Origin: Eledone cirrhosa
Lineage: Eukaryota
Length of the DNA stretch: 64,000 bases
Direction: 5' to 3'
Assembly: GCA_964016885.1 (NCBI GenBank)
Contig: OZ024745.1
Coordinates: forward strand, 125,798,001 to 125,862,000
The first letter of the stretch is position 1; the number at the start of each line of letters is the position of its first letter. This document shows positions 1 to 48,281 of the stretch, in pieces. A program made the position numbers and the translations under genes. The notes under the pieces are model-generated. The model worked only from the letters and a program-made list of their open reading frames with translations, was not told the DNA's origin and searched no databases.

Positions 1-429
1 CTATACATATATATGTTAACATATTTTAAGAATGTGAATCTAATTATATTTGTTACATAAAAAATGTATTGTATTTTAGTATATTATAAGCTACTAATGT
101 ATATGGTTAATTATAAGAATTTAATAATTATGTGAATAAATATATAACGTATTTGTCAATGTTATCTATGTAAACAACTATGGGGAAATAACTCTAAATT
201 ATATAAGGTTTCAAGCATTGTATTCAAGGTAAGTTTTCGGTAAACATTTAATATGATATGCTTCGATCCATTAGGTCCTATAATTATTATTATTTATATT
301 GTAAATGAACAAACAACTTAGATAAGATTTCAGAGCACCATATAAATGGTTAAATGGTTAAAGAACATTTATAACGATTATGAACAGTTTTGGGAAATCT
401 ATACAAACATGAATTAAATATCTCTTTTT

Positions 430-660
430 TTTTAATAATATTAGCAGGATTGGGAATTATATGAAAGATTTCTTCTGTTCAAAGATGACAAATTTTGGAA
501 ATTGAAGAATTTTGGTATGCGGGAGTCTTTCTGATTTTATTCCAAGAGATTGAATAATCAGTGTTATTGTCTTTTAAAGACCAAATTAGTTGTGGCAGTG
601 AAGTTGAGAATTTCTTATCAGAGCGTTTAAAAGTATGTTTGTGATTATATAAGAGAAATA
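430..660 (-). mobile_element. Decayed Penelope-like element fragment (GIY-YIG endonuclease C-terminal region)
   Basis: Translation YNHKHTFKRSDKKFSTSLPQLIWSLKDNNTDYSISWNKIRKTPAY..SKICHL*TEE resembles the PLE pattern 'YxNH..SF....ST.LS..IW.LK.....Y.I.W......Y....K.C.LC..EK'. It has an in-frame stop and abuts (GAA)n. Confidence 0.7.
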
Positions 661-759
661 GAAGAAGAAGAAGAAGAAGAAGAAGAAGAAGAAGAAGAAG
701 AAGAAGAAGAAGAAGAAGAAGAAGAAGAAGAAGAAGAAGAAGAAGAAGAAGAAGAAGAA
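661..759. repeat. (GAA)n microsatellite, ~33 units
   Basis: Direct reading; source of the poly-L and poly-S ORFs. Confidence 0.98.
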
Positions 760-1605
760 AAAATTCGCAATGCTGGAATTTCAATGTATAGTTGATACTT
801 GACTGTTTTCATGTAACCTGCCTTTAATGTCACCCCACTCCAGTCTAATATAGCCTACTGTGTTCCAATATCTGATCCCGAAGGAATATATGCCATTGCA
901 TAAGTGAGGTCAGACAGGAGAATTATATACAATATGTTTCATGGTTCTTTTCCTGCCCACGTATACACAATAACGCCATTGTCCACTCAGCACATATATA
1001 CTTACACACATTCATAGATACCCAAGAAATAATTGTAAGTTATAATAATATGGTTATGGTTTTAATTAGAATGGCGATATAGTAGAAGAATCGATAGAAA
1101 GCCGGACAAAATATGTTGTGGTATTTGGTTACGTCCGTTATGTTCTGAGTTTAAAACACACCCTGCTTAACTTTGCATTTCGTCTATTCGAGACTGACAA
1201 ATTTGATACTAGTTAAATATATGTATAAACCCATAACTCCGGGTGGATTCATATGAATTTTAAACCAAGTTGAATCCGTCACTCTCAAGGTCAGAACATA
1301 GCTGATTTAGTCAAGAGAAAGTGGGGGTGAGAGAGAGGAAATGCAAAAGTTGCATAAAGGAAGAAATGACCTACTACTTGTCTGGCACTTTCTTTTTATC
1401 GACATCGAATGATAAAAGGCATTGTTGATTAGTCGGAATTTGAAATCTGAGCTCAGAAAGCGGGTATGAATACCTCAATATATTCTATCTGACGTTCTAA
1501 CGATTCTAACGATTCACCTATTATTAGAGTTAAATGTATTGACACCAACACTATTTAAAAGTTAAAAATCTTTAAATCAATATAATCATTATTGTAGTTG
1601 TTCGA

Positions 1606-1793
1606 TTGGCTGTGGATTGGCAGTGTCGGTAGAGCGTCAGACACCATGCTTTGCAGCACAGAGTTATGGCCCTTTATGTTCTGAGTTCAAATCTCGCTGA
1701 CGTTACCTTTGTCTTTCATCCTTACGGGGTCGATAAAATAAAGCACCAATAACGCACTGGAGTAATTGCTGGCCTTGTGCCAAAAGTAGAAAC
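1606..1793 (+). mobile_element. tRNA-derived SINE (octopus OK-like, by recollection), short form
   Basis: A box TGGCAGTGTCGG, B box GAGTTCAAATC, core CTTTCATCCTTACGGGGTCGATAAAATAAAG, tail GGCCTTGTGCCAAAAGTAGAAAC. Imperfect TSD 1588-1605 / 1794-1812. Confidence 0.9.
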
Positions 1794-2231
1794 ATTCATT
1801 GTAGATGTTCGAAAGGATAAAATGTATTTTAAAAACTTAATCAGGAAAGACAAAGAAGTTCTCATGACTTTTCGAGGGAAACCTTGAACCCACTGAACAA
1901 CTACAATTCATTGCCTCCAGGAAAAATATAGATTGGAAGAATAAGTATATGCGGTATGGTCCAAATACCTGGAAATTAACATACCCCTCTAAAGTCAACA
2001 ACGTGCATGGTAGTAGAGGAAAACGTGAGGTCGATTTAAGTTTTTACTCTTCTGTGGCCAAATAAGTGTCTTGATTGAGTCGTAAGAACATTTAGGAAGG
2101 TGTTTTGTGTTAATTGGTTCTCTTCTTGGCGCTCTATGTTCAAATCTGAGGTTGACAGAGTACTATTCCAGTCGTAACGTATATACTTTATTTATCTCCC
2201 TCACTTTCTCCCACATTATGAGAAAGAGAGT

Positions 2232-2360
2232 TACCTCCCTGTATGGTCTGAGTTCAAATCCCGCCGAGGTTAACTTTGCCTTTCATCCTTCCGGGGTCGA
2301 TAGAATAAAGTACCAGTAATGCATTGGGTAATTGCTGGCCTTGTGCCAAAAGTAGAAACA
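2232..2360 (+). mobile_element. SINE, 5'-truncated
   Basis: Same family; perfect 17-bp TSD ATTATGAGAAAGAGAGT at 2215-2231 and 2361-2377. Confidence 0.92.
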
Positions 2361-2499
2361 ATTATGAGAAAGAGAGTGGGAAAAGTGATATATATATAAT
2401 CAACACTCTTTCTTATATATATATAACATTAGAATTATATTTCTCGGGCCATTTGCTTGCAAGCAAATCGAATATTATTATTAATGTTTGATATAACCC

Positions 2500-2518
2500 A
2501 CACATACATGTGTATACA

Positions 2519-2567
<49 letters not shown>

Positions 2568-2674
2568 GTATATATATATATGTATATATATACATATATA
2601 TATATACATATATATATATATATTATATATATATATATAGTAATAAATTTACACTCTCTCTTATATATATATAT

Positions 2675-2738
<64 letters not shown>
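2500..2738. repeat. Compound (TA)n/(TG)n microsatellite, representative of many (e.g. ~5080-5290, 6000-6360, 7221-7320, 37260-37680, 52420-52685, 57920-58180)
   Basis: Direct reading. Confidence 0.97.
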
Positions 2739-2740
<2 letters not shown>

Positions 2741-4152
2741 AATTTACGGGTGAAAGCAGCGATTCTTTGCTTAACATTTAATCTGTTATTTTAATATATA
2801 TATGTGTATATATAGAGGTGTGTGTGTGTGTAGTAGGTGAAAAGACACTCCTTATTTATAATTGTTAATAACTATTAATTATTGGTCAATTTGCATAAAA
2901 CGTCACTTTTTCAGTATCTACGGTCCCCTTACGGTTTACATTTGTATTGATTAATTCAGGTTTTAGAGAAAAGCATGAATGTCACACAATACCATTATCT
3001 GTATCTCTTATATTCATAGGCTCATTGTTACTGATGCTGTGGCGGTTGTTATCACTGTTTGCTGTTCTGAAGCTATTTATAAAAATATACATGGATAATG
3101 CACCAAGGTGAATGGTGTCACATTCTCTCATAACAGCTTAACAATGTTCACAGTGTTTACAGTAATGTGATCGCAGTCCTTTAATTCTCATTAAAGAATA
3201 CCTCCTTCATATAGACAACAATAGCTTGTAAGCAATACACGATTTACGTATTGAAAACTTGCCACCTTTACTATTTCACTTTACACTGAGATAAAGGCTA
3301 AGTCATGAAAATCACTTACGCATTTTCTTGTGTTGTTGGTATTGGTGCGTAAAGAATATAAAGACATTTTACTCTATTTACAGAACAGAAAAATATTTTT
3401 GAAGGGTGATATCTCATTTTTGAAGTTACGACATTATGTTCCAAAAAGAATAATAAAAAATGTTAACCCACCACATGGCATTACTGCAGTCAAACGAAAA
3501 CATGTTATAGCTGCGAAGATGTTAAATCAAACCTAGACGATGACGATTGGTACCATAGTCGCCATAGGTGATCAACTTACCTGACCCCTCATTGACATGA
3601 GGTCAGTCCCTCGCAGGGTCAGATACCAGCTACTGTAATTCTTTTGTAAATTAGCACAAGCCCACAATATGCCACCCAATCTGGGAATCGAACTCCCAAT
3701 CTTATGATCCTGTGCCCAATAGCCTAAGCACTAGACTTGTGCACCTACACATAATCACGCCTGAGCTCAACTCTTATAACTGACGACTTTCATCAAACCA
3801 GAGTCAAGAAGCATTGACAACCAAATTTAGAATTATATTACAATTTTCTAATAACAGATTATACTCTTTGATGATTGCATCTCACCACAATAAACACTAG
3901 TGCAAGGGGGATTCCCTGTCATTCAGGACAATGAGCGTTCATTTCGTCATGAAATTAATGTGTAAAGAGCTTCGGGTATGTTCAAGCAATATGAGTATTT
4001 CCTTTTTCGTACATCACAAGTCTAAACACCTAAAGATGCATGTGTGAGTATGTATGTTCCTTCTTGAACATGGCGGACCTTGTTGTCTCTTGAGGTCACT
4101 GGTTGTGACTTGGTGATAACTCGTATGAACATAAAGCAAGATAAATGCAGCT

Positions 4153-4197
<45 letters not shown>

Positions 4198-4202
<5 letters not shown>

Positions 4203-4563
4203 GATCGTGCGTGATTGTGGATGTGGCCTGCCCATTCGACACGAGAGTGCAAGAGAAGGAGAGGGAGAAAATTAACCGATACCAGGACTTAAAGTGGGAG
4301 GTAAAAAGGATTTGGAACTGCCATGAAGTCAAAGTCGTCCCGATTGTCATAGGCGCACTAGGTACTATCTCAAAAAGTTTCCAGGGATGGTTAAAGAAAA
4401 TTGGCCCCGCCATGCTTTTTGGAACGCTTCAAAAGGCATGCTTGCTGGGAACAGCAAGAACCCTCCTATACGTCCTGAATATCTGAGGCTGCAGGTAGTG
4501 GCTTGATATTCATTTCAACAAACTTTCCAGTTAACTAACATCAATGACTGAGACTCAAAGAAC
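4198..4563 (+). mobile_element. 5'-truncated R4/Dong-clade LINE (restriction-like endonuclease C-terminus plus 3' UTR) in a (TAA)n tract
   Basis: ORF 4211-4486 IVDVACPFD..EKEREKINRYQDLKWEVKRIW..VVPIVIGALG..LQKACLLGTAR is the REL signature of R4/Dong. (TAA)n lies on both sides (4154-4197, 4564-4608). Confidence 0.85.
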
Positions 4564-4610
<47 letters not shown>

Positions 4611-4679
4611 ACTATTAATGATTATTAATTAATTCAATCGTGCAATGCCTGTGCCTGACGAATATTTTTAAAGTGAGGA

Positions 4680-4917
4680 AAACCTGTGCACTGAGCCAAT
4701 CCCACTCTCTGAGCGACAGTAGCTATAAGCCGAAAAGAAGAAAAGATCAACATCATCGCTAACTACTGAGCCGCAGGTTTTATGTCGGAGTTAACCCAGT
4801 TTCCTGAGATGCCTTCTCCTAGAAGAATGCCCTGACAAGGGCTAGGGGTTCTTCACTCCCAATGGTTTAACTGCGCGATCGGGTATCCAGCCCGACTATT
4901 TCTATGTCCCCGCGCAT
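4680..4917 (-). mobile_element. RTE-related 5'-region fragment
   Basis: 4775-4917 is the reverse complement of 49140-49272. The CCTAGCCCTTGTCAGGGCAT..TAGGAGAAGG motif resembles RTE 5' UTRs. Confidence 0.5.
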
Positions 4918-5076
4918 AAAAAAAGAAAAAAAAATCACTTATTAACACTTTAGACGTACGACATACACACACTAACATACATACATTCATACATACATGC
5001 ATACATACATACTTACATATATAGATTCATACATAGATACATACATACGTACATATATACATATTTACTAACATAC

Positions 5077-5203
<127 letters not shown>

Positions 5204-6125
5204 GAGAGAGAGAGAGAGAGAGATAGGTAGATAGATAGATAGTTAGTTAGATATATAGATAGATAGATAGATACATAGATAGATAGATAGAAACACTTAA
5301 ACATCTGTTTGTTAATTTTGCAATATAAAAAAGATAGCAGAATAGAATTTCGTAGATTGACTGGTTTGACTGCTAAATTATTTTTATATCCTATATTTTC
5401 GTGACATTTCTATAATTACTTTTTCAGTCAACTACCGTCCACTTTGTTCATATATTTTCTACAACTATATATTTTAAATATTCATTTCTGACATCACAAT
5501 GCTATTGCATTTTTTCCCTTCCGTTTTAAATAAATATTGCACGAGAAAATAACCTGTGATTTTGCTTAAGGGATGTTTACTTTGAAAACAAAATTTCTGA
5601 ATTCAAAGTAAAAACGGAAACATTCAAGCGTTGTACCTTCCTTGAAGCCGTAGATTTTCGTCACAAGCAAAAAGTGTATATGAAATATTTTATAACATCT
5701 TGCTATAAACAGCCAAATAAATATCATGTCGTCTGCTGGTGGTATCAAATAGCTGATAGCTATCAAAATATTTGTTATACTATTTATTGATTTCTAACAT
5801 AAACATAAATCTCAGCTCACCGGAAACTTATTTCCTAGTCTTCAATGCTCACCTGCTGCTATATTTTATAATACTGTTATGTTTACTAATTTATTAAACA
5901 GGCACAAGGCCTAAATTTTAGAGACAAGACGAAATGAGATGTTAGGAAATCGCTTTTCATTTTTTCGCGATTAATAGACCTAAAGACACACATCAAATGC
6001 ATATATATATATATATACATATATACGTGTATGTGTGGGTGTGTGTATGCGCGCGTGTGTGTGTATTTGTATGTATATATGTATATGTGTATATATGTAT
6101 ATGTGTTTATATATACATATGCATA

Positions 6126-6163
<38 letters not shown>

Positions 6164-6171
6164 CTGTATAT

Positions 6172-6218
<47 letters not shown>

Positions 6219-6238
6219 CATATGCATATATATACATA

Positions 6239-6334
<96 letters not shown>

Positions 6335-16817: not shown

Positions 16818-17140
16818 TGCATACGCACGCGCACAAGTATAGCACTTTATACAAAACAGTTTTTTTTCCATTACAGGTAGACGCGTTCCATTATCCGCGT
16901 TTCTAAACAAATAGATCTTACACAAAACGCCAACATCAACAGTTTTCCAAGAGATGTCAGCATGAATGGACCTGTTATTTTTATCTAAAGACATTTTTTT
17001 CGACTGCACCCTACCCGTCCCTTCAATCTATCTTATTTCTGATTCTTTCTTCTTATGAAGGACTAGCGTCCGAAACGTTAAGACCCTCTTCCTGCTATTT
17101 CAAACATTAACCTAATATATTCCTTCCATATAATGTACCG
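16494..17140 (+). mobile_element. Penelope-like 3' remnant (ORF end plus pseudo-LTR with decayed hammerhead)
   Basis: TAT TGT TTC CCT CAT GGA CTC AAC = YCFPHGLN (PLE terminal PxGLN motif), followed shortly by a stop. Hammerhead-like motif at 17048-17083. Confidence 0.55.
17048..17083 (+). ncRNA. Degenerate minimal hammerhead (G5 mutated)
   Basis: TCTT-CTTATGA-A-GGAC tagc GTCC-GAAA-CG-TT-AAGA. Stems I and II are intact; the core reads CTTATGA instead of CTGATGA. Confidence 0.6.
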
Positions 17141-17509
17141 ATTTTGTACATTACATACATACATGATGACTTGCCCCTCGTTATCGAGTATGGCCATTGC
17201 ACGAGAAAAAATAACAAAAACAAAAAATAACATACATAATAATAATAATAATAATGATTTCATTTATTGGCCACAAGGGCCGACATATAGGGGACAACAC
17301 AATAGACAGGGACAGTGGGGGTTTACATAGAGATCAAGTAAGTATAAATAACAAGAAAAACAAAATAACAATAAAAATACAACAATGAAAGTTCCCCAAT
17401 AAGAGGGATCACCACCCAGGGTTGACTCAAGCACCCCACCAGTCCTGAGCCACCCGACGCTCCTAGGGCACCCGGGAAGGGCACCCCTCTCCTTCTCGAA
17501 TTCACCAGC

Positions 17510-20500
17510 CTACAGGCGCATGATCAGAGTAGGCCCACTCACGCGGGCCATTCTCGCCACATTCACCCACCTTTCAGTAAATGTACTGGGGGGCAGCACT
17601 TCTCTCTCCACCCTCACCTTCCTTTCCAAGTGAAACTTGAAGAAGTTGATGAGGGATTGGCCGAAGAGAAAAGTGTCTGTCTTCAGTCCTTTCAACCTGG
17701 TCCACCATGCAACCTCTTTCGCTACTGCCACCAGGCAGAGGAAAATTGCCTGCCCTTCCTGACCAAAAGAAGGCGGCGGGTCAATCTTCACTATGGACTC
17801 GGACGATAGCCGGATCCGTTCTACACGCGACAATAGCTGTTCGACATAACCCCACAAGTCAGCAATGCACGGACACTGGACGAGTGCGTGCAGAACGGTT
17901 TCGTCGCTCTGCGCGCATCTCGGGCAGGTTCGTCTGACAGCACTTCCGTGCCTGTAGAGTTTATCCCGAACCGGCAGCGCCCCCCGGTAGCACTGCCAAG
18001 CGAGGGATTTCTGGAAGTTATCCATCGTCCCCGGCTCGAAAGTCCTCCGGAACATACTGGTCAGTTCTACTTCGTTGACGCCCAGAGCCTCTCCTAGTAC
18101 GTCATCGCACTTGCCCTCCACTAATCCTCTATAGAAATCTTGAGTGGAAGTTCCACTGACCGCATTGCCCACCTTGCAGAGTGCAGTGAGCGCCTGGCAA
18201 CATTCCAGATGCCAGTCGCCCAGTCTCGGTCTCTTCTTGACCCAGGACTGCAGCTCAGTCAAAGAGATGAGCTGCGGAAAGGCCCGTCTAACAAACGGCG
18301 ACCACACCTGTTCACCGTTTAGGCAAAATATCTGGAGATGTCGCAGCCTCAGCGCATGTCTGCGCATCATTAGCCACGGCATGCCCAGCCCTCCACGAAG
18401 AGGGTGCTGGCAGCAGATGGACCGCCTCACCAACGGGACCCGTCCCCTCCACAAAAATTTGAAAAGGAGCCGTTCCAAATTGGCGAGGCGTGGACGGGGG
18501 CAAGGCACGACGGTCAGGCGGTAGTAGATGACGGACGCGATGTACGCGTTCGCCACCTCCGCCCGCCCTTTCAGTGATAGCTTTCTCTCAGCCCATTTCT
18601 GGGTGAGGTTGGCTATCCTGCTCGTCACCTCGTCCCAATTCTTATCCACCTGGAGGTCTGGTCCGAACCAAACCCCGAGCAACTTTACCGGTCCGTCTGT
18701 CCAGCGCCCAACGACGCTGTTGGACGGCATGGACTTGCCTCTCCAGGTGCCGAGCTGCAAGCCCACCGACTTTTCCGGGTTAAGTTTTGCTCCCGTCAAC
18801 CTTTCATATTCCTCCAAATGGGTGCGGATCACCTCGATTTCCGAGGTGTCCGACACCATCACGGTGATGTCGTCTGCATAAGCGGACGCAGCCTTTCTAC
18901 GTCCCGGTTCGAGCGGGATGCCCTGCAACAACTCCAGCTTCCGCAGTAGAGGCTCAAGAGTCAATACGTACAGAAGTGAGGAGAGAGGGCACCCTTGACG
19001 GACCGATCGAGAGATCTGAAACGGTTCCGAGAGGTGGCCATTAACTTTGACCACCGAGCGGATGCCGCTGTACATTGCAGCGATCCAGCTTCTGAAGACG
19101 GGGCCGAAGCCAGCCGCCTCGAGGACAGCCTCCAAGTACCGATGGTCGACCCTATCGAATGCTTTCGATTGATCTAAATTGATCAGAGCCCCACCGAAGC
19201 CAGGTTTGCACCCAACCCTCTCTATGATGTATCGCATGAGGTGGAGGTTGTCGTGTATGGACCTGGTCGGGATTGCGCAAGTTTGCGCCTCCCCAACCAA
19301 ATCTTTGACGACAAGCGCCAACCTTTTCGCTAACACCTTGGCCAAAATCTTAAACTCTGTGTTGAGCAGGGTTATGGGCCTGAAATTATCTAGTGTGTCC
19401 CTCTTGTTCTCGTCTTTCCTTATCAGCGTCACTACGCCACGGCTCACAGAACTGGGAATGCTCCCGTTCTGCTGCCAGTTGCAGTAGAGCGCTTCGAGGA
19501 GATCGGAGAACAAGTCTGGCATATTTACGTAAAGCTCGTAGGGCAGACCATCCAAACCGGGTGACTTGCGACTCGAGCAGCCGACAAGGGCGTCCTGAAT
19601 TTCGGCTGATGTTATCGGCTCTTCGCAGCGCTCAGCGTCGGCCGTCGAGAGGCGTGGCAAGCCGTCGAGGTAGGGACTGAAGTCCGCCGCCATCTCCGAC
19701 TCACCCATCCTCCCGAACAATCGAGCAAAGTGCTGGCGAAAGGCCTCACACATCTGCTTGGAATCGCTCAGTTCGTGTCCATCTCGATCCGTCAAAGACC
19801 GAATTGTGGTTTTATTTCCACGCTGCGTCTCTGCAAAGCGAGCCCATCGGGCAGCTTTGGTTCCCTCGTTCCTCAGAGCACGCGCCTTAGCTCTGACAAT
19901 GCAACCTTCGTGTTTCGCATTGAAGAAATGGTCTAGTGCCATTCTCGCCGCTAGCACGTCTGTTGCAATGCCACTACAAATAGCCTCGTCTAACTTAGCT
20001 ATCAGCCCCTCCTCTTTTCTATTTTTCTCTATTGCTACTTCTTTGCTAAATCCTATCGAGGTTGCTCTAATCTCTCTTTTGAGTGCCCCCCACCACCTGT
20101 TGTTGACAACCCCCCCTGTCAACTTTTGCTTAACTAAGTTGTTGACCCGGTCCCTGTAAGCTTTACGTGCCGGAAACGACATGTTTAGCTTCCAGTAGCT
20201 AGGTCCTAACCTACGTGTCTTATCTAGGTCGACCATACAGATCACAAGCTTGTGATCTGAATAGGCAACCGTTTTAAAATGTGGACATCCTACACTATTT
20301 CTATCTCTTTTCCTAATGAAAATCCTATCTATGTACGATCTAGATGACCCTATGCGATTGGTCCAGGTCCATACTGGCGCATTAGGGAAATCTAGTCGGT
20401 ACCTGTCAGACAGTTGAAACTGGCTGATCAGGTACTTGAGGCTTTTGCACCCCCCGCTCCTATCAGATACTCCCACACAATCCCAGCGTGCTTCTAAGAT

Positions 20501-20929
20501 GCCATTCCAATCCCCTATTAACAGTAAAGGGCGAGACGTAAGCAGAAAGTTTTCCAGGCGCCTAAAGAAGTCCGGCCGACCGGCCCCAGTAGGGGCGTAG
20601 ACGGCCACCAGTCTAAAGGCACCACCTTCGCTATTGCTCACGTCCAGGACCACCAACTTTCCGTCAGGATCCCGGAAGATTGACCTTACCTCGAGATCCA
20701 GACATTTCCTAAACAGCACAGCCACTCCACCTCCCATTCCCGGCCGACTAACAGATGCAAAGATCTGATAATCGTCGAAAATCGGCGCCAGTGCGCGTGT
20801 GTCGGAAATTCTGGTCTCGCTGATGGCAATTACATCCATTCCTAGTGACCTGAGGTCGTTGAGCAAGTGACCTTGCTTCCAGGGCGACCCCAGGCCACGA
20901 ACATTTAAACTTCCTACTCTTATGGCCAT
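17510..20929 (-). CDS. LINE ORF2: AP endonuclease + reverse transcriptase + C-terminal zinc finger (1139 aa)
   Basis: APE motifs SLNVRGL, ISET, VYAP, GDWN, IDRIF, SDH. RT motifs SPGLDG, FRPITLLN, LDQSKAFDRVDH, VRQGCPLS, YADD. Zinc finger CPRC-x8-H-x4-C. WKLN and RPITLLN context typical of L1/Tx1. Confidence 0.97.
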   Translation of the reverse strand: MAIRVGSLNVRGLGSPWKQGHLLNDLRSLGMDVIAISETRISDTRALAPIFDDYQIFASVSRPGMGGGVAVLFRKCLDLEVRSIFRDPDGKLVVLDVSNSEGGAFRLVAVYAPTGAGRPDFFRRLENFLLTSRPLLLIGDWNGILEARWDCVGVSDRSGGCKSLKYLISQFQLSDRYRLDFPNAPVWTWTNRIGSSRSYIDRIFIRKRDRNSVGCPHFKTVAYSDHKLVICMVDLDKTRRLGPSYWKLNMSFPARKAYRDRVNNLVKQKLTGGVVNNRWWGALKREIRATSIGFSKEVAIEKNRKEEGLIAKLDEAICSGIATDVLAARMALDHFFNAKHEGCIVRAKARALRNEGTKAARWARFAETQRGNKTTIRSLTDRDGHELSDSKQMCEAFRQHFARLFGRMGESEMAADFSPYLDGLPRLSTADAERCEEPITSAEIQDALVGCSSRKSPGLDGLPYELYVNMPDLFSDLLEALYCNWQQNGSIPSSVSRGVVTLIRKDENKRDTLDNFRPITLLNTEFKILAKVLAKRLALVVKDLVGEAQTCAIPTRSIHDNLHLMRYIIERVGCKPGFGGALINLDQSKAFDRVDHRYLEAVLEAAGFGPVFRSWIAAMYSGIRSVVKVNGHLSEPFQISRSVRQGCPLSSLLYVLTLEPLLRKLELLQGIPLEPGRRKAASAYADDITVMVSDTSEIEVIRTHLEEYERLTGAKLNPEKSVGLQLGTWRGKSMPSNSVVGRWTDGPVKLLGVWFGPDLQVDKNWDEVTSRIANLTQKWAERKLSLKGRAEVANAYIASVIYYRLTVVPCPRPRLANLERLLFKFLWRGRVPLVRRSICCQHPLRGGLGMPWLMMRRHALRLRHLQIFCLNGEQVWSPFVRRAFPQLISLTELQSWVKKRPRLGDWHLECCQALTALCKVGNAVSGTSTQDFYRGLVEGKCDDVLGEALGVNEVELTSMFRRTFEPGTMDNFQKSLAWQCYRGALPVRDKLYRHGSAVRRTCPRCAQSDETVLHALVQCPCIADLWGYVEQLLSRVERIRLSSESIVKIDPPPSFGQEGQAIFLCLVAVAKEVAWWTRLKGLKTDTFLFGQSLINFFKFHLERKVRVEREVLPPSTFTERWVNVARMARVSGPTLIMRL

Positions 20930-20958
20930 GCTGGCAGGATGAATGGGAGAGGAAAGGT

Positions 20959-22869
20959 TTACTTACCTTCCGGGGTCTTGTGAAGGTCGGGTGGTTCGAC
21001 CTCCATGGTTTGTGGGGTTTCTTTTGGGAACCCCTTTAATAGTCTTGACGTGGGTTTTACGTTCGGGGTTCCCACATCCCGAGGAAAGCTCTTTCGAATT
21101 TCTTTGTATGAAGCGAGCGACATTCGCATCAGAAGCAAATTATCTGGTACGCGAAATGTGCTCGCTTCAAATGTTTCCCCGTCTTTTTCGATGTTTGTGC
21201 TTCGTGCTACATGGGCCATCAATTCCTTGTTGGCCCTTCTGGCAAGCACGAAGTTTTTAATGTTTTGTTGCTCGGGTTTTATTTGTTCGTGTGATTGTGG
21301 TGGTGATAGCTTTGTTAGTGTTGTTTCTATTGTGTCTGCGTTTGTTGTGGGTGGGGTGTCTGTAGTTTCTGATGTTTGTGTGTCTATTTGTTCTTGTGTC
21401 TGTTTAGCTTGTTTGCGTTTGGGGGATTTTGGTGGTTGTGTTGGTGATGCTGTGGGGAAAATGTTTGTGTGGGTGGTGTGTGTATTTTTTTTTGTGGGGG
21501 TGTTTGTGCTTTGTGGATTTCTTTTTTTTTTGTGTTTTGTTTTTTGTATTTTGGGGGACTTTGGTTTTCCCTCATCTTCACTGCTGGAGGATGAGGGGTC
21601 TGTGGCTGTGAGCGTGTTTGTGTCTGAGTGAGTGTTTATGTTCTTGTTCGTGTGTGTATTTTGGGGGGGAGGGGGAATGGGAGAGCTTTCCTCGTTTCCC
21701 CCCTGGGTGTGCAATTTTGGTGGTTCCATTGTTGACGGTGTTGCTGGTGGTCCTTGTCCCGGCGTCGCCAGCAGTGGAATCTTTCGACCCCTTGCGCTTT
21801 TCGGCAGTTGAGGGCAGAAGGCTCGCAAGTGTGTCGTTTCCCCACAAAGGAAACAATGCGGCCTTTTGCCCTCAGTCATTATATGCAACACCCTCCCGTT
21901 TTGGAGGCGGATGTGGTCCGGGATTGTTTTTACGTTTTCGGGTCTGATTTGGAGCAGTATCTCCAGATCAACCCCGGACCAGTCGTCCCTGGCAGTTCTC
22001 GTTGCCTCTACCGGGACTGTATCCGTTCCTTCCACGATTACGCAACCCAGGAGCCACCACATATCAAGTCCTGGTGGAATCCTGGGAATGCGCACACGTG
22101 CTATTCGTTTTCCCATGTGGGAGGGGTACATTATGACCTTGCTGGTTTTGCAAGGGGTCATTGAATGCTTCACAGCGAGGGCTTCAGACTTGAACAGCAC
22201 CGAAACGGTGCCGTATTGCCTGCCCCTCTCTATGAAGTCTGTGTCCTCTCTGATGTATTTCAGTGCGGCTTCTATGTCAGCTTGGGCGATTATCGCTGCC
22301 CTCTTTGTCTCTACTGAGATGCATCTGAAATGCACCGTTCTTTTTTCCACTGCCTCAATGGCTTCTGCCGGGACAGTTAAGTTTGCCCAGGTCTGCTCTT
22401 GATTTATGATTTTCCAGGCCTGGGCCAACTTTTCCTCTCTGTTGGTTAAGTCGATGCTGTAGCATGGTCTCCTTTTAGCCGCTGCCACAGCAGCGAAAGT
22501 GTTCTTGTTGGTGTTGTCACTGTTGTTGTTCTTGTTGGTGTTGCTGCTGCTATTGCTGTTGTTGTTCTCCCCTGTGTCGTGGTTTCCCTCTGTGCTGTTG
22601 GCCTTGTTGGTGCTGTTGCTGTCGCTACTATTACTCTCTGTGCTGTTTGTTTTGTTGGTGCTCTCGCTATTACCACCTTCTGCGCTGTTCGGCTTGTTGG
22701 TGTTGGTGTTGTCGCTGTTACCTACTTCCGCGCCGCTCGGCCCGTTGGTGCTGGCACTGTCGCTGCTCACACTCGTGCTGGTGGCGCTCCTCGCCTCACC
22801 TCTCCTCTCAACGCTCAAGTCGCCGTTGCACGACAGCAGACCCGCCTCTAGGGGGCGTGGCTCCGCCAT
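20959..22869 (-). CDS. LINE ORF1 (gag-like nucleic-acid-binding protein, 636 aa)
   Basis: Ends 29 bp upstream of ORF2. CCHC knuckle CFLCGETTHLRAFC, TFAAVAA motif, N/S/T-rich N-terminus and T/P/K-rich C-terminus. Confidence 0.92.
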   Translation of the reverse strand: MAEPRPLEAGLLSCNGDLSVERRGEARSATSTSVSSDSASTNGPSGAEVGNSDNTNTNKPNSAEGGNSESTNKTNSTESNSSDSNSTNKANSTEGNHDTGENNNSNSSSNTNKNNNSDNTNKNTFAAVAAAKRRPCYSIDLTNREEKLAQAWKIINQEQTWANLTVPAEAIEAVEKRTVHFRCISVETKRAAIIAQADIEAALKYIREDTDFIERGRQYGTVSVLFKSEALAVKHSMTPCKTSKVIMYPSHMGKRIARVRIPRIPPGLDMWWLLGCVIVEGTDTVPVEATRTARDDWSGVDLEILLQIRPENVKTIPDHIRLQNGRVLHIMTEGKRPHCFLCGETTHLRAFCPQLPKSARGRKIPLLATPGQGPPATPSTMEPPKLHTQGGNEESSPIPPPPQNTHTNKNINTHSDTNTLTATDPSSSSSEDEGKPKSPKIQKTKHKKKRNPQSTNTPTKKNTHTTHTNIFPTASPTQPPKSPKRKQAKQTQEQIDTQTSETTDTPPTTNADTIETTLTKLSPPQSHEQIKPEQQNIKNFVLARRANKELMAHVARSTNIEKDGETFEASTFRVPDNLLLMRMSLASYKEIRKSFPRDVGTPNVKPTSRLLKGFPKETPQTMEVEPPDLHKTPEGK

Positions 22870-23163
22870 GTTTTTTTGAGAAAAAAATTATTATTTTTTT
22901 TCAAAATAAAGTTCAAATATTTGGGCCAAAAGGCCCAAATATTATGAGTTATTCCTTCACAGGATACAAATGAAAGTCTTATAATGCTTCAACGGTACAA
23001 AAAATAAACAATTCTCTACAATTAATCCTCAAAAAATCGCTTACTCACGGAGCTTCAAAAAACGTACATCCACTTTCGTCAATAATAATAATAATAATAA
23101 CAACAATAATAATAACGATTTCTTTATAACAATAATAATAACGACAACAACAACAATAATAAT

Positions 23164-23346
23164 TGTTTCTACTTTAGGCACAAGGCCAGCAATTACCAGT
23201 GCATTACTGGTACTTTATTTTATCGACCCCGTAAGGATGAAAGGCAAAGTCAACCTCGGCAGGATTTGAACTCAGATGGTAAAGGGACGTAACTATGCTG
23301 GAAAGCATGGCGTCCGACCCTCTACCGATACTGCCAATCCACCGCC
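23164..23346 (-). mobile_element. SINE, short form, next to the AAT/AAC tract that holds the LINE
   Basis: Family consensus in reverse complement. Confidence 0.9.
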
Positions 23347-23429
23347 AACAACAACAATAATAATATACATATATATATACACACACACAAACATATCTAT
23401 ACACACACGATAGTAATTAACAGCGCTGC

Positions 23430-23820
23430 GAACAAAGTGGATTTTTAGCCCAGCCAATGATCTACAATGTCTTGCACAGAGTCGGCAACCAAAACATTCA
23501 CTGGGAATAGCCGGCTGTGGTTGGAGTTCATGTACTTTTGCATGTCGTTTGAACCCTCCTGCAGATTTACATTCTCTACCACATGCTTGGCAAGCATGAT
23601 GAGTAGCATCTCCAACAGCAGCCTGGTAGTCAACCACTGGTCTTACTTTATGACTGCGAAGATGACTTTCGAGTCCAGCTTTGCTTAGACAGAGTCTCGC
23701 ACAGACGCTGCATGTCAGCACCATAGGAGGACCCTCTCCGTCTGGAAGTGCAACAGCATTACCCTTCCTCACATCCCGCTTTATTTTCTCGTATGCGATT
23801 CGAGATGCCTCAAAGGCAAC
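23430..23820 (-). mobile_element. RTE-like LINE 3' coding fragment with three C2H2-type fingers
   Basis: CSVCARLCLSKAGLESHLRSH, CQACGRECKSAGGFKRHAKVH and CRLCARHCRSLAGLKIH match the RTE terminal 'C..C.R.C.S..GL.SH' motif. Confidence 0.65.
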
Positions 23821-24111
23821 TTTTCCCTCATATACAGTTTGTCAAATCATCGAGTCAGTCAATTCGTACTTACGAATAAACGCACTTATATACGAAGGAT
23901 TCATATATCCATTGTTTCAACGTTGATATAATGTAGGTTTTTAGGTTAATGAGCGAGCAGACATTATATGGATTTGCTGACATGAAAGTTAATTTTGCTT
24001 ATGCAATTGTTTTCTTTTACTTCCTTTCATTATCTCATAACTACTCATATACACACATACATACATACATACATACATACATACATGCATACATGCACAT
24101 ATACATACATG

Positions 24112-31584: not shown

Positions 31585-32304
31585 GAACAATATATATAGA
31601 AGGAACAATATATATAGAAGGAACACTATATATAGAAGGAACACTATATATAGAAGGAACTATATATATAGAAGGAACACTATATATAGAAGGAACACTA
31701 TATATAGAAGGAACACTATATATAGAAGGAACAATATATATAGAAGGAACACTATATATAGAAGGAACACTATATATAGAAGGAACTATATATATAGAAG
31801 GAACACTATATATAGAAGGAACACTATATATAGAAGGAACACTATATATAGAAGGAACAATATATATAGAAGGAACACTATATATAGAAGGAACACTATA
31901 TATAGAAGGAACACTATATATAGAAGGAACAATATATATAGAAGGAACTATATATATAGAAGGAACACTATATATAGAAGGAACACTATATATAGAAGGA
32001 ACACTATATATAGAAGGAACACTATATATAGAAGGAACACTATATATAGAAGGAACACTATATATAGAAGGAACTATATATATAGAAGGAACACTATATA
32101 TAGAAGGAACTATATATATAGAAGGAACACTATATATAGAAGGAACACTATATATAGAAGGAACAATATATATAGAAGGAACTATATATATAGAAGGAAC
32201 ACTATATATAGAAGGAACACTATATATAGAAGGAACACTATATATAGAAGGAACACTATATATAGAAGGAACACTATATATATAGAAGGAACTATATATA
32301 TAGA
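31585..32304. repeat. 18-bp minisatellite GAAGGAAC(AC/AA/TA)TATATATA, ~40 units
   Basis: Direct reading; gives the spurious (SIYSVP)n ORF. Confidence 0.97.
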
Positions 32305-45101: not shown

Positions 45102-45500
45102 TACTTATATAAGCAAAAAATATACATTATTATATGCACACATAACGGTATGATTGTGTGCGCGTACACAAACGTGTATGTATGTGTGTGCGTACACAAA
45201 CGTGTATGTATGTGTGCCTTCATGAATACCAACTTTAATACCTTCAAATGAAACTTTATCTTCAGGTGCTACTATCTATTATAAAATTGCTATATTTCAT
45301 TTTTATCCCCAGTTAAGGCGCATTACATCTTATCTGTGGCAGATTTTGTCTTGGAATACTAATTAGGCCCCATGGCTTTAGTTGTCCGATTCCTTAGGTT
45401 CGCGTTTACGTCAACTCCACCACCTCTCTTTTTCCCTCTTCCTCCCTCGCACTTTCTCTCTGCCATCCCAACAACAACTATAATAACTTACAGTAGCAAC

Positions 45501-46345
45501 ACCACCATCATTGCCACCACCACCATTGCCACCACCACCATCATTGTCACCACCACCACCATTGTCACCACCACCACCATTGTCACCACCACCATTGTCA
45601 CCACCACCACCATCATTTCCACCATCACCACCATTGCCACCACCACCATTGCCACCACCACTATTTCAGCCATCACCATCATTGCCACCACCACCATTGC
45701 CACCACCACCACCATTGTCACCACCACCACCATTGTCACCACCACCATTGTCACCACCACCACCACCACTATTTCAGCCATCACCATCATTGCCACCACC
45801 ACCATTGCCACCACCACCACCATTGTCACCACCACCACCATTGTCACCACCACCATTGCCACCACCACCACCATTGCCACCACCACCATTGCCACCACCA
45901 CTATTTCAGCCATCACCATCATTGCCACCACCACCATTGCCACCACCACCACCATTGTCACCACCACCACCATTGTCACCACCACCACCATTGCCACCAC
46001 CACCACCATTGTCACCACCACCATTGTCACCACCACCACCACCATTTCCACCATCACCACCACCATTGCCATCACCACCATTGTCACCACCACCACCAAC
46101 ATTGCCACTACCACCATTGCCACCACCACCATTGCCACCACCACCACCACCAACATTGCCACCACCACCATTGCCACCACCACCATTGCCACCACCACCA
46201 CCATTTCCACCACCACCACCAACATTGCCACCACCACCATTGCCACCACCACCATTGCCACCATCACCAACATTGCCACCACCACCATTGCCACCACCAC
46301 CATCACCACCACCATTGCCACCATCACCACCACCATTGCCACCAC
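45501..46345. repeat. Cryptic (CAC)n-based satellite, ATTG(C/T)(CAC)n units
   Basis: Direct reading; higher-order marker CTATTTCAGCCATCACC at ~45661, 45769 and 45901. Confidence 0.95.
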
Positions 46346-46405
46346 CGCAACTACCAATACAACCTCCACCATCATATCCAGCAATAGTAGTGAGGTTAAT
46401 ATTAT

Positions 46406-47433: not shown

Positions 47434-47490
47434 TACACGCACAAAACATGCATACACACACACACACATATGTATATATATATATAATAA

Positions 47491-48281
47491 TTGTTTCTAC
47501 TTTTGGCACAAGGCCAACAATTACCCAGTACATTACTGGTACTTTATTATATCGACTCCGTAAGGATGAGAGGTTAACCTCGGCGGGATTTGAACTCAGT
47601 CTGTAAAGGGACGAAACTGTGCTGCAAAGCATGGCGTCCGACCCTCTACCGATACTGCCAATACACCGCCCTATATAATTGTTTCTACTTTTAGGCACAA
47701 GGCCAGCAATTACCCAGTGCGTTACTGGTACTTTATTTCATCGACCCCGTAAGGATGAAAGGCAAAGTCAACCTCGGCGGGATTTGAACTCAGATCGTAA
47801 AGGGACGTAACTATGCTGGAAAGCATGGCGTCCGACCCTCTACCGATACTGCCAATCCACCGCCCTATATAATAATGATATAATCCATATATAATAATTG
47901 TTTCTACTTTGGCACAAGGCCAGCAATTATCGCAGTGCATTACTGGTACTTTATTTTATCGACCCCGTAAAGATGAAAGGCAAAGTGAACCTAGGCGGGA
48001 TTTGAACTCAGAATGGCAAGGGCCGTAACTCTATGCGTTAAAGCATGGCGTCCCTCCCTCTACCGATACTGCCAATCTACCGCCCTTTGTTCTACAATTA
48101 ATTGTTTCTACCTTTGGCACAAGGCCAGCAATTACCCAGTATATTACTGGTACTTTATTTTATCCACCCTGGTAAGGATGAAAGGCAAAGTTAACCTCGG
48201 CGGGATTTGATCTCAGAATAGCAAGGGCCATAACTCTATGCGTCAAAGCATGGCGTCCGACCCTCTACCGATACTGCCAAT
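47491..48281 (-). mobile_element. Four head-to-tail SINE copies (~47491-47671, 47680-47864, 47898-48085, 48103-48281)
   Basis: Four consecutive consensus copies with distinct internal variants. Confidence 0.92.

Follow-up and report, generated by a model that had tools for sequence, protein, structure and literature searches.

A young LINE family of octopus, likely of the Tx1 clade, that lies in (ATT)n microsatellites and whose lineage likely carries an abundant SINE

A 64,000-nucleotide stretch of the Eledone cirrhosa genome (assembly GCA_964016885.1, contig OZ024745.1, positions 125,798,001 to 125,862,000 of the forward strand; hereafter the window, with positions counted from its first letter) holds on its minus strand a full-length long interspersed element (LINE) with (ATT)n on both sides. 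We found that this element is a member of a young family whose copies are associated with (ATT)n microsatellites, and of this association we are as good as certain. Individual copies are referred to below by their L numbers.

The 25-nt sequence at the element's 5' end has 317 exact matches in the 3.0 Gb of genome scanned, and 311 of these 5' ends directly follow (ATT)3, against a background of 48 in 128,000 window positions (0.04%). Three of the six exceptions (L149, L204 and L210) were fetched and proved to lie in ATT runs with one GTT unit. At the 5' junction, ATT stands before the first G of the element in all full-length copies examined, young (86 of 86) and older (14 of 14) alike. On the other side, the 3' flank starts with ATT in 84 of the 86 young copies and with GTT in two (L136 and L202), and the downstream ATT measures at least 15 nt in 67 of the 86. 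Among 60 copies chosen by their last 36 nt only and taken in genome order, none had poly(A), and 56 continued with ATTAT. The (ATT)6 motif did not occur in 100 dinucleotide shuffles of the window, yet five real arrays are present in its 64 kb; since such arrays are common, one copy alone cannot show specificity, but the genome-wide counts do. An earlier reading of the window, hereafter the original prediction, had noted an exact (AAT)6 on each side of this one copy and the lack of poly(A), had proposed a preference for (ATT)n, and had named random 5' flanks or poly(A) tails in other copies as evidence that would speak against it. Both repeats were found as described (Table 1), the 5' flanks of other copies are not random, and no poly(A) tails were seen.

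The same prediction spoke of a single family; the element belongs instead to a lineage of several families that behave alike, with sister ORF2 sequences (ORF, open reading frame) 64-85% identical. Among 11 neighbouring stretches, tblastn matched ORF2 in nine at 55-85% identity (best segments), gave one short match at 39%, and gave none in the remaining one. Full-length neighbours likewise start with G after ATT and have a related tail before ATT. One sister tail had 7,811 exact matches, followed by ATT in 29 of 30 sampled. These families stack in one another's ATT flanks. The upstream neighbour of the 86 young copies was the tail of an own-family copy in 8 cases, of a sister LINE in 18 and of a short interspersed element (SINE) in 6; a degenerate triplet run accounted for 27 and other sequence for another 27. 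Where the spacer lies ahead of another LINE's 5' end, it is 18 nt long in 9 of 15 cases, with a minimum of 15.

Very little probability can be given to the explanation that no targeting takes place and that copies were passively accumulated or retained in ATT arrays, or reflect segmental duplication or assembly collapse. A tandem upstream copy was found at 16 of the 92 listed 5' ends on C1 and C2, the largest array having 10 units, and recombination could yield such arrays. However, the flanks beyond the ATT runs differ between loci, the junction is exact to the base in 86 of 86 copies, divergence between copies is only 0.5%, and in another organism a contig (X6) likewise opens with five ATT units ahead of the 5' end. 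The largest array (G000:C1:423361913-423420172; L202, L203, L029 and L030) consists of ten head-to-tail copies with 15-nt spacers where these were seen, and after its last copy come GTT and, in inverted orientation, part of the element's own 3' end. Separately, about ten insertions (L099, L121/122, L190, L192/193, L194, L205, L208, L215, L236 and L241) have a common degenerate GTT/ATT context on both sides, which suggests that they lie in a host element that is itself repeated and contains an ATT array.

Because the length of a duplication is ambiguous in a pure run, a value of 15-18 bp was taken from interrupted targets. L149 and L241 have an exact 18-bp duplication and L210 an exact 15-bp duplication, each including the GTT unit and each running from the first base after the element. 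Duplications of 17-18 bp and 17 bp into non-ATT sequence were found at the truncated copies L143 and L126, respectively; L126 and L133, also truncated, lie at isolated ATTAT sites, and the duplications of L143, L126, L133 and the sister copy L396 all end in non-ATT sequence. The GTT that follows L136 and L202 indicates that an ATT tail is not obligatory, and the one and two extra ATT units ahead of the duplication in L133 and L138 indicate that short tails do occur. A duplication outside the ATT runs was present in 4 of 86 young copies versus 1.4 after shuffling, which argues against random insertion of an element bearing its own repeat ends. The target-site duplication of 18 bp originally proposed as plausible agrees with the 15-18 bp of L149, L241, L210 and L143. 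The accompanying caution that duplication and (ATT)n tail cannot be separated from one copy was correct, and it was the interrupted targets of other copies that separated them. The duplications of host SINEs were also considered as a record of pre-insertion targets (seven cases), and were uninformative since those SINEs lie in ATT nests as well. The 11-nt stub listed in Table 1 likely stems from an insertion of this lineage that underwent extreme truncation.

The flanking runs could also be self-built, if insertion took place at a short ATTAT and the ATT runs were then copied from the RNA ends and extended by slippage. The extra units of L133 and L138 would agree with this, as would L216, L214, L229 and L191, which have 7-10 nt of ATT downstream yet 12-19 nt upstream, and the 27 of 86 upstream neighbours that look unique. 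We consider this explanation improbable, given that no units were added in L149, L241, L210, L143 and L126, that two copies are followed by GTT, that an older triplet run or the tail of an element ending in ATT adjoins 59 of 86 copies, and that upstream runs reach 53 nt.

Next to the LINE lies a tRNA-like SINE with putative promoter boxes, whose 23-nt tail has 154,003 exact matches in the genome. The tails of the SINE and the LINE have the same CTTGTG core at the same spacing to the end. In a sample of 30 SINEs drawn in genome order, ATTAT came next in 26, the ATT run was never longer than 11 nt, and 18 had a duplication of 11-20 nt that runs from the first base (control mean 0.9, maximum 4). 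In a further set of 70 SINEs from fetched loci, ATTAT followed in 63, and 32 had non-repeat duplications versus a control mean of 3. Since start base, duplication length and tail are the same or similar in both elements, the LINE lineage is likely the carrier of the SINE. A hairpin analysis of 12 tails, which were hand-picked and are related to one another, revealed a stem of four pairs around CUUGU that is paired in 83% of cells. Two-sided changes affect three of the four pairs and number 8 in 48 cells, a value reached in 0 of 500 shuffles; slid controls were lower. As is expected of a stringent LINE, the two elements have in common a 3' tail with a conserved stem-loop, here of about 27 nt and of weak folding energy. 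Elsewhere in the window, at 47487-48281, this SINE forms a tandem row of four copies, with short duplications that start with ATTAT between them.

Given that the SINE and several truncated LINEs lie at isolated ATTAT sites, the site of the nick may span as little as about 5 bp. The APE-type endonuclease (APE) specific for ATT arrays that had originally been put forward is at odds with these landing sites and with their duplications that enter non-repeat DNA. We lean towards the explanation that a short endonuclease site acts together with pairing between ATT repeats on the element's RNA and the target; array preference would then likely stem from the RNA-DNA pairing, and the enzyme's own site may be short. 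The proposed course of events is as follows. The junctions display a 3' end that directly adjoins an ATT unit, with the duplicated target beginning at that very base. The ORF2 protein would bind its own RNA at the CUUGU hairpin ahead of AATAAA, i.e. by stringent recognition, and would carry the SINE likewise. Where an ATTAT begins, the APE would nick the strand that reads AAT, while the RNA would be cleaved in the donor's downstream ATT run and a few AUU units would pair with the primer; reverse transcription would begin at the junction, with poly(A) skipped. The second break, to judge by the interrupted targets, typically falls 15-18 nt downstream, and appears to be sequence-blind in SINEs and truncated copies. 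Finally, a short ATT leader may be copied at the end of a full-length cDNA, and this copy would anneal to ATT of the overhang. Such annealing would fix 5' junctions at ATT before G, favour arrays of at least five units, and help explain why 95% of young copies are full length. Each insertion would duplicate an ATT run, and so families would come to stack in each other's flanks. Where an ATT run ends within 15 nt, none of 6 full-length LINEs has a duplication that enters non-repeat DNA, against 21 of 44 SINEs (Fisher p=0.033).

A competing explanation, which we regard as rather unlikely, holds that the endonuclease itself reads long (ATT)n, with both nicks in register, and that another or a less strict enzyme mobilizes the SINE. 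The long downstream runs of 67 of the 86 full-length copies and the phase of all 86 junctions speak for it; short sister-family copies also mostly have long downstream runs, an endonuclease loop is conserved across families (see below), and the Tx1L endonuclease is sequence-specific in vitro (PMC1950540; this paper and those below are cited from the parts available to us). What it does not readily accommodate are the duplications of L143, L126, L133 and L396 that end in non-ATT sequence, the isolated ATTAT sites of L126 and L133, and a SINE with the same start base, duplication length and tail motif.

Several observations weigh against the pairing explanation or against parts of the evidence on which it draws. 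An interruption within 15 nt was duplicated in 3 of 19 full-length LINEs versus 25 of 51 SINEs (p=0.014, with L136 and L202 dropped from the count as pure-ATT matches), a contrast that weakens to p=0.055 when L136 is counted and to 0.11 when both are (5/19); moreover, the 51 SINEs came mostly from LINE neighbourhoods and the numbers are small. The outer pair of the hairpin is unpaired in 8 of 12 tails, which leaves three reliable pairs, the fold of the LINE tail is no better than that of shuffles (z=+1.0), and the best fold of the SINE tail does not contain the CUUGU hairpin. Three of five young copies that lack the 5' end (L107, L244 and L248) have ATT downstream and neither an ATT run nor a duplication upstream; the older copies L109, L145, L139, L110 and L091 also have downstream ATT with no matching upstream duplication (4 nt only in L091), and about 10 kb of sequence further upstream did not contain the missing parts of nine copies that lack the 5' end. 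These copies would fit later deletions. Internal deletions in L195 and L247 and the short L240 indicate that young copies are indeed subject to deletion. In the sister family with 7,811 tail matches, only 7 of 15 copies with a junction within 1.5 kb have ATT or a duplication at the 5' junction, and 27 of the 86 upstream neighbours of young copies bear no sign of an older repeat. The leader, the read-through and the use of the hairpin are proposals drawn from DNA sequence only. With these points in mind, we offer as a tentative and rather doubtful extension that an animal L1/Tx1 lineage may have exchanged the poly(A) mechanism for repeat pairing, with an ATTAT cut and AUU RNA ends that would yield insertion into ATT arrays exact to the base and about 95% full length, and that the same enzyme may have spread more than 150,000 SINEs and been a main engine of ATT growth in octopus.

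The family is young. The last 36 nt of the element have 902 exact matches genome-wide, which include an older sister subfamily of 84-90% identity with a different 5' untranslated region (UTR), and a 3' marker specific to the young copies has 338. In the first 100 young 3' ends, the 5' end is kept in 95; 12 had no exact 5' match, owing to a variant base or an internal deletion in seven and to a missing 5' end in five. A full-length rate of 95% is unusual for an L1-type element. Both ends were located in 81 of 83 young copies, of which 49 have an open ORF2 and 33 have both ORFs open. The mean ORF2 divergence among 80 copies is 0.49%; four pairs are identical, of which three join copies from distant parts of the genome, and the copies nearest to the window element differ by 2 nt over 3.4 kb of ORF2. 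The youth ascribed to the element from one copy is thereby upheld, as is the reading that both its ORFs are open with catalytic motifs kept, on which Pfam matches to endonuclease, RT (reverse transcriptase) and zf-RVT and the list of motifs agree. Intact ORFs and identical ORF2 regions at distant loci indicate a young family, and on sequence grounds would be compatible with present-day activity. Read mapping at the window locus and at L237 yielded no empty allele, a result that tells little, since the mapping skipped repeat junctions and the flanks are repetitive. No RNA run was among the sequencing runs matched to the element, which speaks neither for nor against its expression. Two candidate joints that skip the element, from X5 (379 to 6307, side 24) and X4 (17286 to 23209, side 21), were rejected as empty alleles, because flank is removed along with it and the joints fall in repeated DNA. 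At 98% identity, contigs from two other organisms span the element in all 30 bins. The depth of contigs over parts specific to the family, which is not a copy number, was about 2,000 in X1, up to about 100 times more in X5, and 6-10 in X6, a hint of very different amplification between organisms. Eight copies (L099, L113, L185, L194, L203, L210, L213 and L223) are about 50 bp shorter with both ORFs open, the gap of L099 lying in the 3' UTR, and are possibly an inherited sub-lineage.

The two ORFs are separated by 30 nt (Table 1). ORF2 contains the motifs ISET, VYAP, GDWN, SYIDR, SDH, QSKAFD, RQGCPLS, YADD and CPRC..HALVQC, of which ISET, VYAP, GDWN and SYIDR align with the human L1 endonuclease chain. 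The 3' junction reads AATAAATGAAATC followed by ATTATT, with no poly(A). The usual distance from AATAAA to the cleavage site is 10-30 nt, and RNA cleavage after the AATAAA of the element would fall within the downstream ATT run. A Pfam search of ORF1 returned no match; its core resembles RRM+CCHC (type I) proteins, as a lead only, through atlas look-alikes of the zf-CCHC/ZCCHC3 kind at 0.89-0.92. The 5' UTR matched no Rfam family at threshold, and its fold was not better than that of shuffles. A 5' ribozyme was considered and rejected: the 5' region has a hammerhead-like start, while the remainder of the core is missing and there is no Rfam match. A splice-donor-like GTAAG/GTGAG lies about 30-40 nt after the first G in three different 5' UTRs (window ~23035-23050, L100 and L250), and is possibly a promoter element.

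Table 1. Positions of the LINE, its parts and the associated insertions in the window
Feature	Position	Strand	Remarks
Full-length LINE	17256-23080	minus	5,825 bp; member of the young family
(ATT)6 adjoining the 3' end	17238-17255	minus	exact; downstream copy of the duplication, at most 18 bp here
(ATT)6 before the 5' end	23081-23098	minus	exact; upstream copy of the duplication, possibly partly from an RNA leader
3' UTR	17256-17509	minus	254 nt, no poly(A)
AATAAA	17263-17268	minus	7 nt from the 3' end of the element
Predicted hairpin of 3-4 bp, CUUGU loop	17269-17281	minus	common to sister LINEs and the SINE
ORF2	17510-20929	minus	1,139 aa; zf-RVT match, E=1.1e-8
ORF2, APE endonuclease	~20252-20911	minus	PF03372, E=1.6e-14
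ORF2, RT	~18671-19405	minus	PF00078, E=1.3e-29
ORF2, C-terminal CCHC	17873-17926	minus	cysteine-rich motif
ORF1	20959-22869	minus	636 aa; low-complexity ends
ORF1, single CCHC knuckle	21814-21855	minus	motif in sequence
5' UTR	22870-23080	minus	211 nt; first base G directly after ATT
11-nt stub matching the 3' end of a sister family	23117-23127 (within 23102-23142)	minus	between two exact 15-bp repeats starting with GTT
tRNA-like SINE	23164-23346	minus	182 nt; same tail motif; 18-19 bp duplication starting with ATTAT

The L1-group part of the proposed L1/Tx1 assignment held firmly, and the Tx1 part is likely on the sequence evidence. The element has two ORFs, and its ORF2 combines an N-terminal APE, an RT and a C-terminal cysteine-rich motif, as in the L1 group; in a comparison with structures, whose hits included no RTE, CR1 or I proteins, ORF2 scored 197 bits to L1 ORF2p (residues 4-853) versus 81 bits to R2. 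Features of L1 proper, of the mammalian type, were absent, with no Transposase_22 in ORF1 and poly(A) in 0 of 60 copies. RRM/CCHC ORF1s have been linked to Tx1 (PMC5203782); here the CCHC stands in the sequence, while the RRM comes from the atlas look-alikes only. A target preference of the Tx1 kind, for which more than 20% of flanks in one sequence type has been applied (PMC4494074), is seen in 311 of 317 flanks. Metagenome relatives of 25-29% identity lie directly beside U2 (L264, L266 and L270), 5S (L274) and U1 (L283), and L261, L265 and L266 have U2-like sequence just ahead of ORF1; Keno adjoins U2 and Mutsu adjoins 5S genes (PMC3706591). In the RT trees, the relatives L264, L266, L270 and L274, not named Tx1 families, served as stand-ins for Tx1. 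A midpoint-rooted FastTree nested the family among these U2/5S-adjacent relatives (0.92-0.93), but backbone support in IQ-TREE with outgroups was low, at 16-52. The atlas assigned no clade name. The octopod families make up a single clade, whose sister group consists of database proteins (FastTree 1.0 and 0.97, 187 RT fragments), and this joint group has a support of 100 (IQ-TREE, 42 RT sequences); the only homologue with an informative organism name is P0052 of Argonauta hians (69% identity over 41% of the query). The endonuclease loop TNRIGSSRSY is identical in three families that are otherwise 68-75% identical and different in all 9 outside homologues in which the loop pattern matched; nicking by the L1 endonuclease is affected by this loop (PMC1950540). 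No ATT arrays were found at element ends in 20 metagenome loci, which carries little weight since most of these contigs stop at the ends.

Other features of the window lie outside the LINE. A 182-aa open frame at 23296-23841 (minus strand), with several C2H2-type zinc-finger matches below or near threshold, is probably the C-terminal fragment of another retroelement. At ~17050-17110 (plus strand), a repeat that is also found upstream of L107 has a minimal hammerhead-like core with one core base off, and no Rfam match; it is possibly a Penelope-type end. An 18-bp tandem array of 40 copies occupies 31585-32304, and a long, CAC-rich degenerate array 45500-46346.

As far as our literature search reached, L1/Tx1 elements that seek out microsatellites gain with this one a new repeat target and a new host, and a SINE is likely its passenger. 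That search, which worked from titles and the starts of abstracts and had Repbase and Dfam outside its range, returned no ATT-targeting L1/Tx1 element. A term search of the available parts of PMC9115989, PMC4758252, PMC4824008 and PMC5203782 gave neither an ATT-targeting Tx1 nor a partner SINE of octopus. In Octopus vulgaris, 13 recently active L1-Tx1 families with 421 insertions are described in a main text in which, as far as it was available, the word 'target' is absent (PMC13282606); these are young octopus families under the same superfamily label and may include the ATT family. The mechanism of microsatellite specificity has been called not well understood (PMC3812793). A LINE in long arrays and its likely SINE passenger at lone ATTAT sites offer a natural experiment on the shares of endonuclease and RNA-DNA pairing in this specificity, and the enzyme lends itself to direct tests, as dozens of copies are intact and nearly identical. 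That 95% of copies are full length is relevant to the joining of LINE 5' ends and to 5' truncation where retrotransposons serve for gene insertion, and a likely carrier can now be named for one of the most abundant octopus SINEs.

Dong and R4 elements have a single ORF with a C-terminal restriction-like endonuclease, whereas the octopus element has two ORFs and an N-terminal APE, an architecture that is not of the R4 type. Dong, of the R4 lineage, has an HDV-like ribozyme, and its targets are of the same microsatellite class: in silkworm and mosquito, as in a snail, they are TAA repeats (PMC3812793, PMC3774820). It belongs to a group of which families are annotated in octopus (PMC13282606, PMC9115989). 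The sense strand of Dong, however, is flanked by (TAA)n and that of the octopus element by (ATT)n, i.e. on the opposite strand, and the likeness is one of convergence, not kinship. R2 offers an analogy for the proposed leader, as its RNA keeps upstream 28S sequence and annealing of the cDNA to the target gives uniform 5' junctions (PMC3774820), much as the 5' junctions of the octopus element might arise; R2 differs in clade and endonuclease, no ribozyme was found in the octopus element, and its leader is conjectural.

Pairs of L1-clade LINEs and SINEs with a common tail include LINE1-1_ZM with ZmSINE2/3 in maize and L1-1_CR with SINEX-3_CR in Chlamydomonas (PMC3472496, PMC3747384), and SINEU, of which SINEU-3 shows tandem insertions separated by target-site duplications, has been tied to Tx1-Mar by a shared target (PMC4494074). 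The octopus pair resembles these in joining an L1-clade LINE to a SINE by a common 3' stem-loop or target. The plant and algal pairs, however, are non-animal, and the algal one ends in poly(A); unlike SINEU and Tx1-Mar, which were tied together by the shared target, the octopus LINE and SINE have both the tail hairpin and the nick signature in common. A close likeness is to the L1/Tx1-type elements with APE and RT that are confined to a microsatellite, Kibi on (TC)n, Koshi on (TTC)n and the crocodilian Tx1 families on (TTCC)n/(TTTC)n (PMC4494074, PMC3812793). From Kibi and Koshi the octopus element is set apart by the description of the target, (ATT)n and not (TC)n or (TTC)n, rather than by a comparison of sequences, and from all of these by its AT-only repeat, cephalopod host, lack of poly(A) and tail-sharing SINE. 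With it, the repeats targeted by L1/Tx1 elements gain one of A and T only, and their hosts a mollusc; Dong, which is unrelated, uses this microsatellite from the opposite strand.

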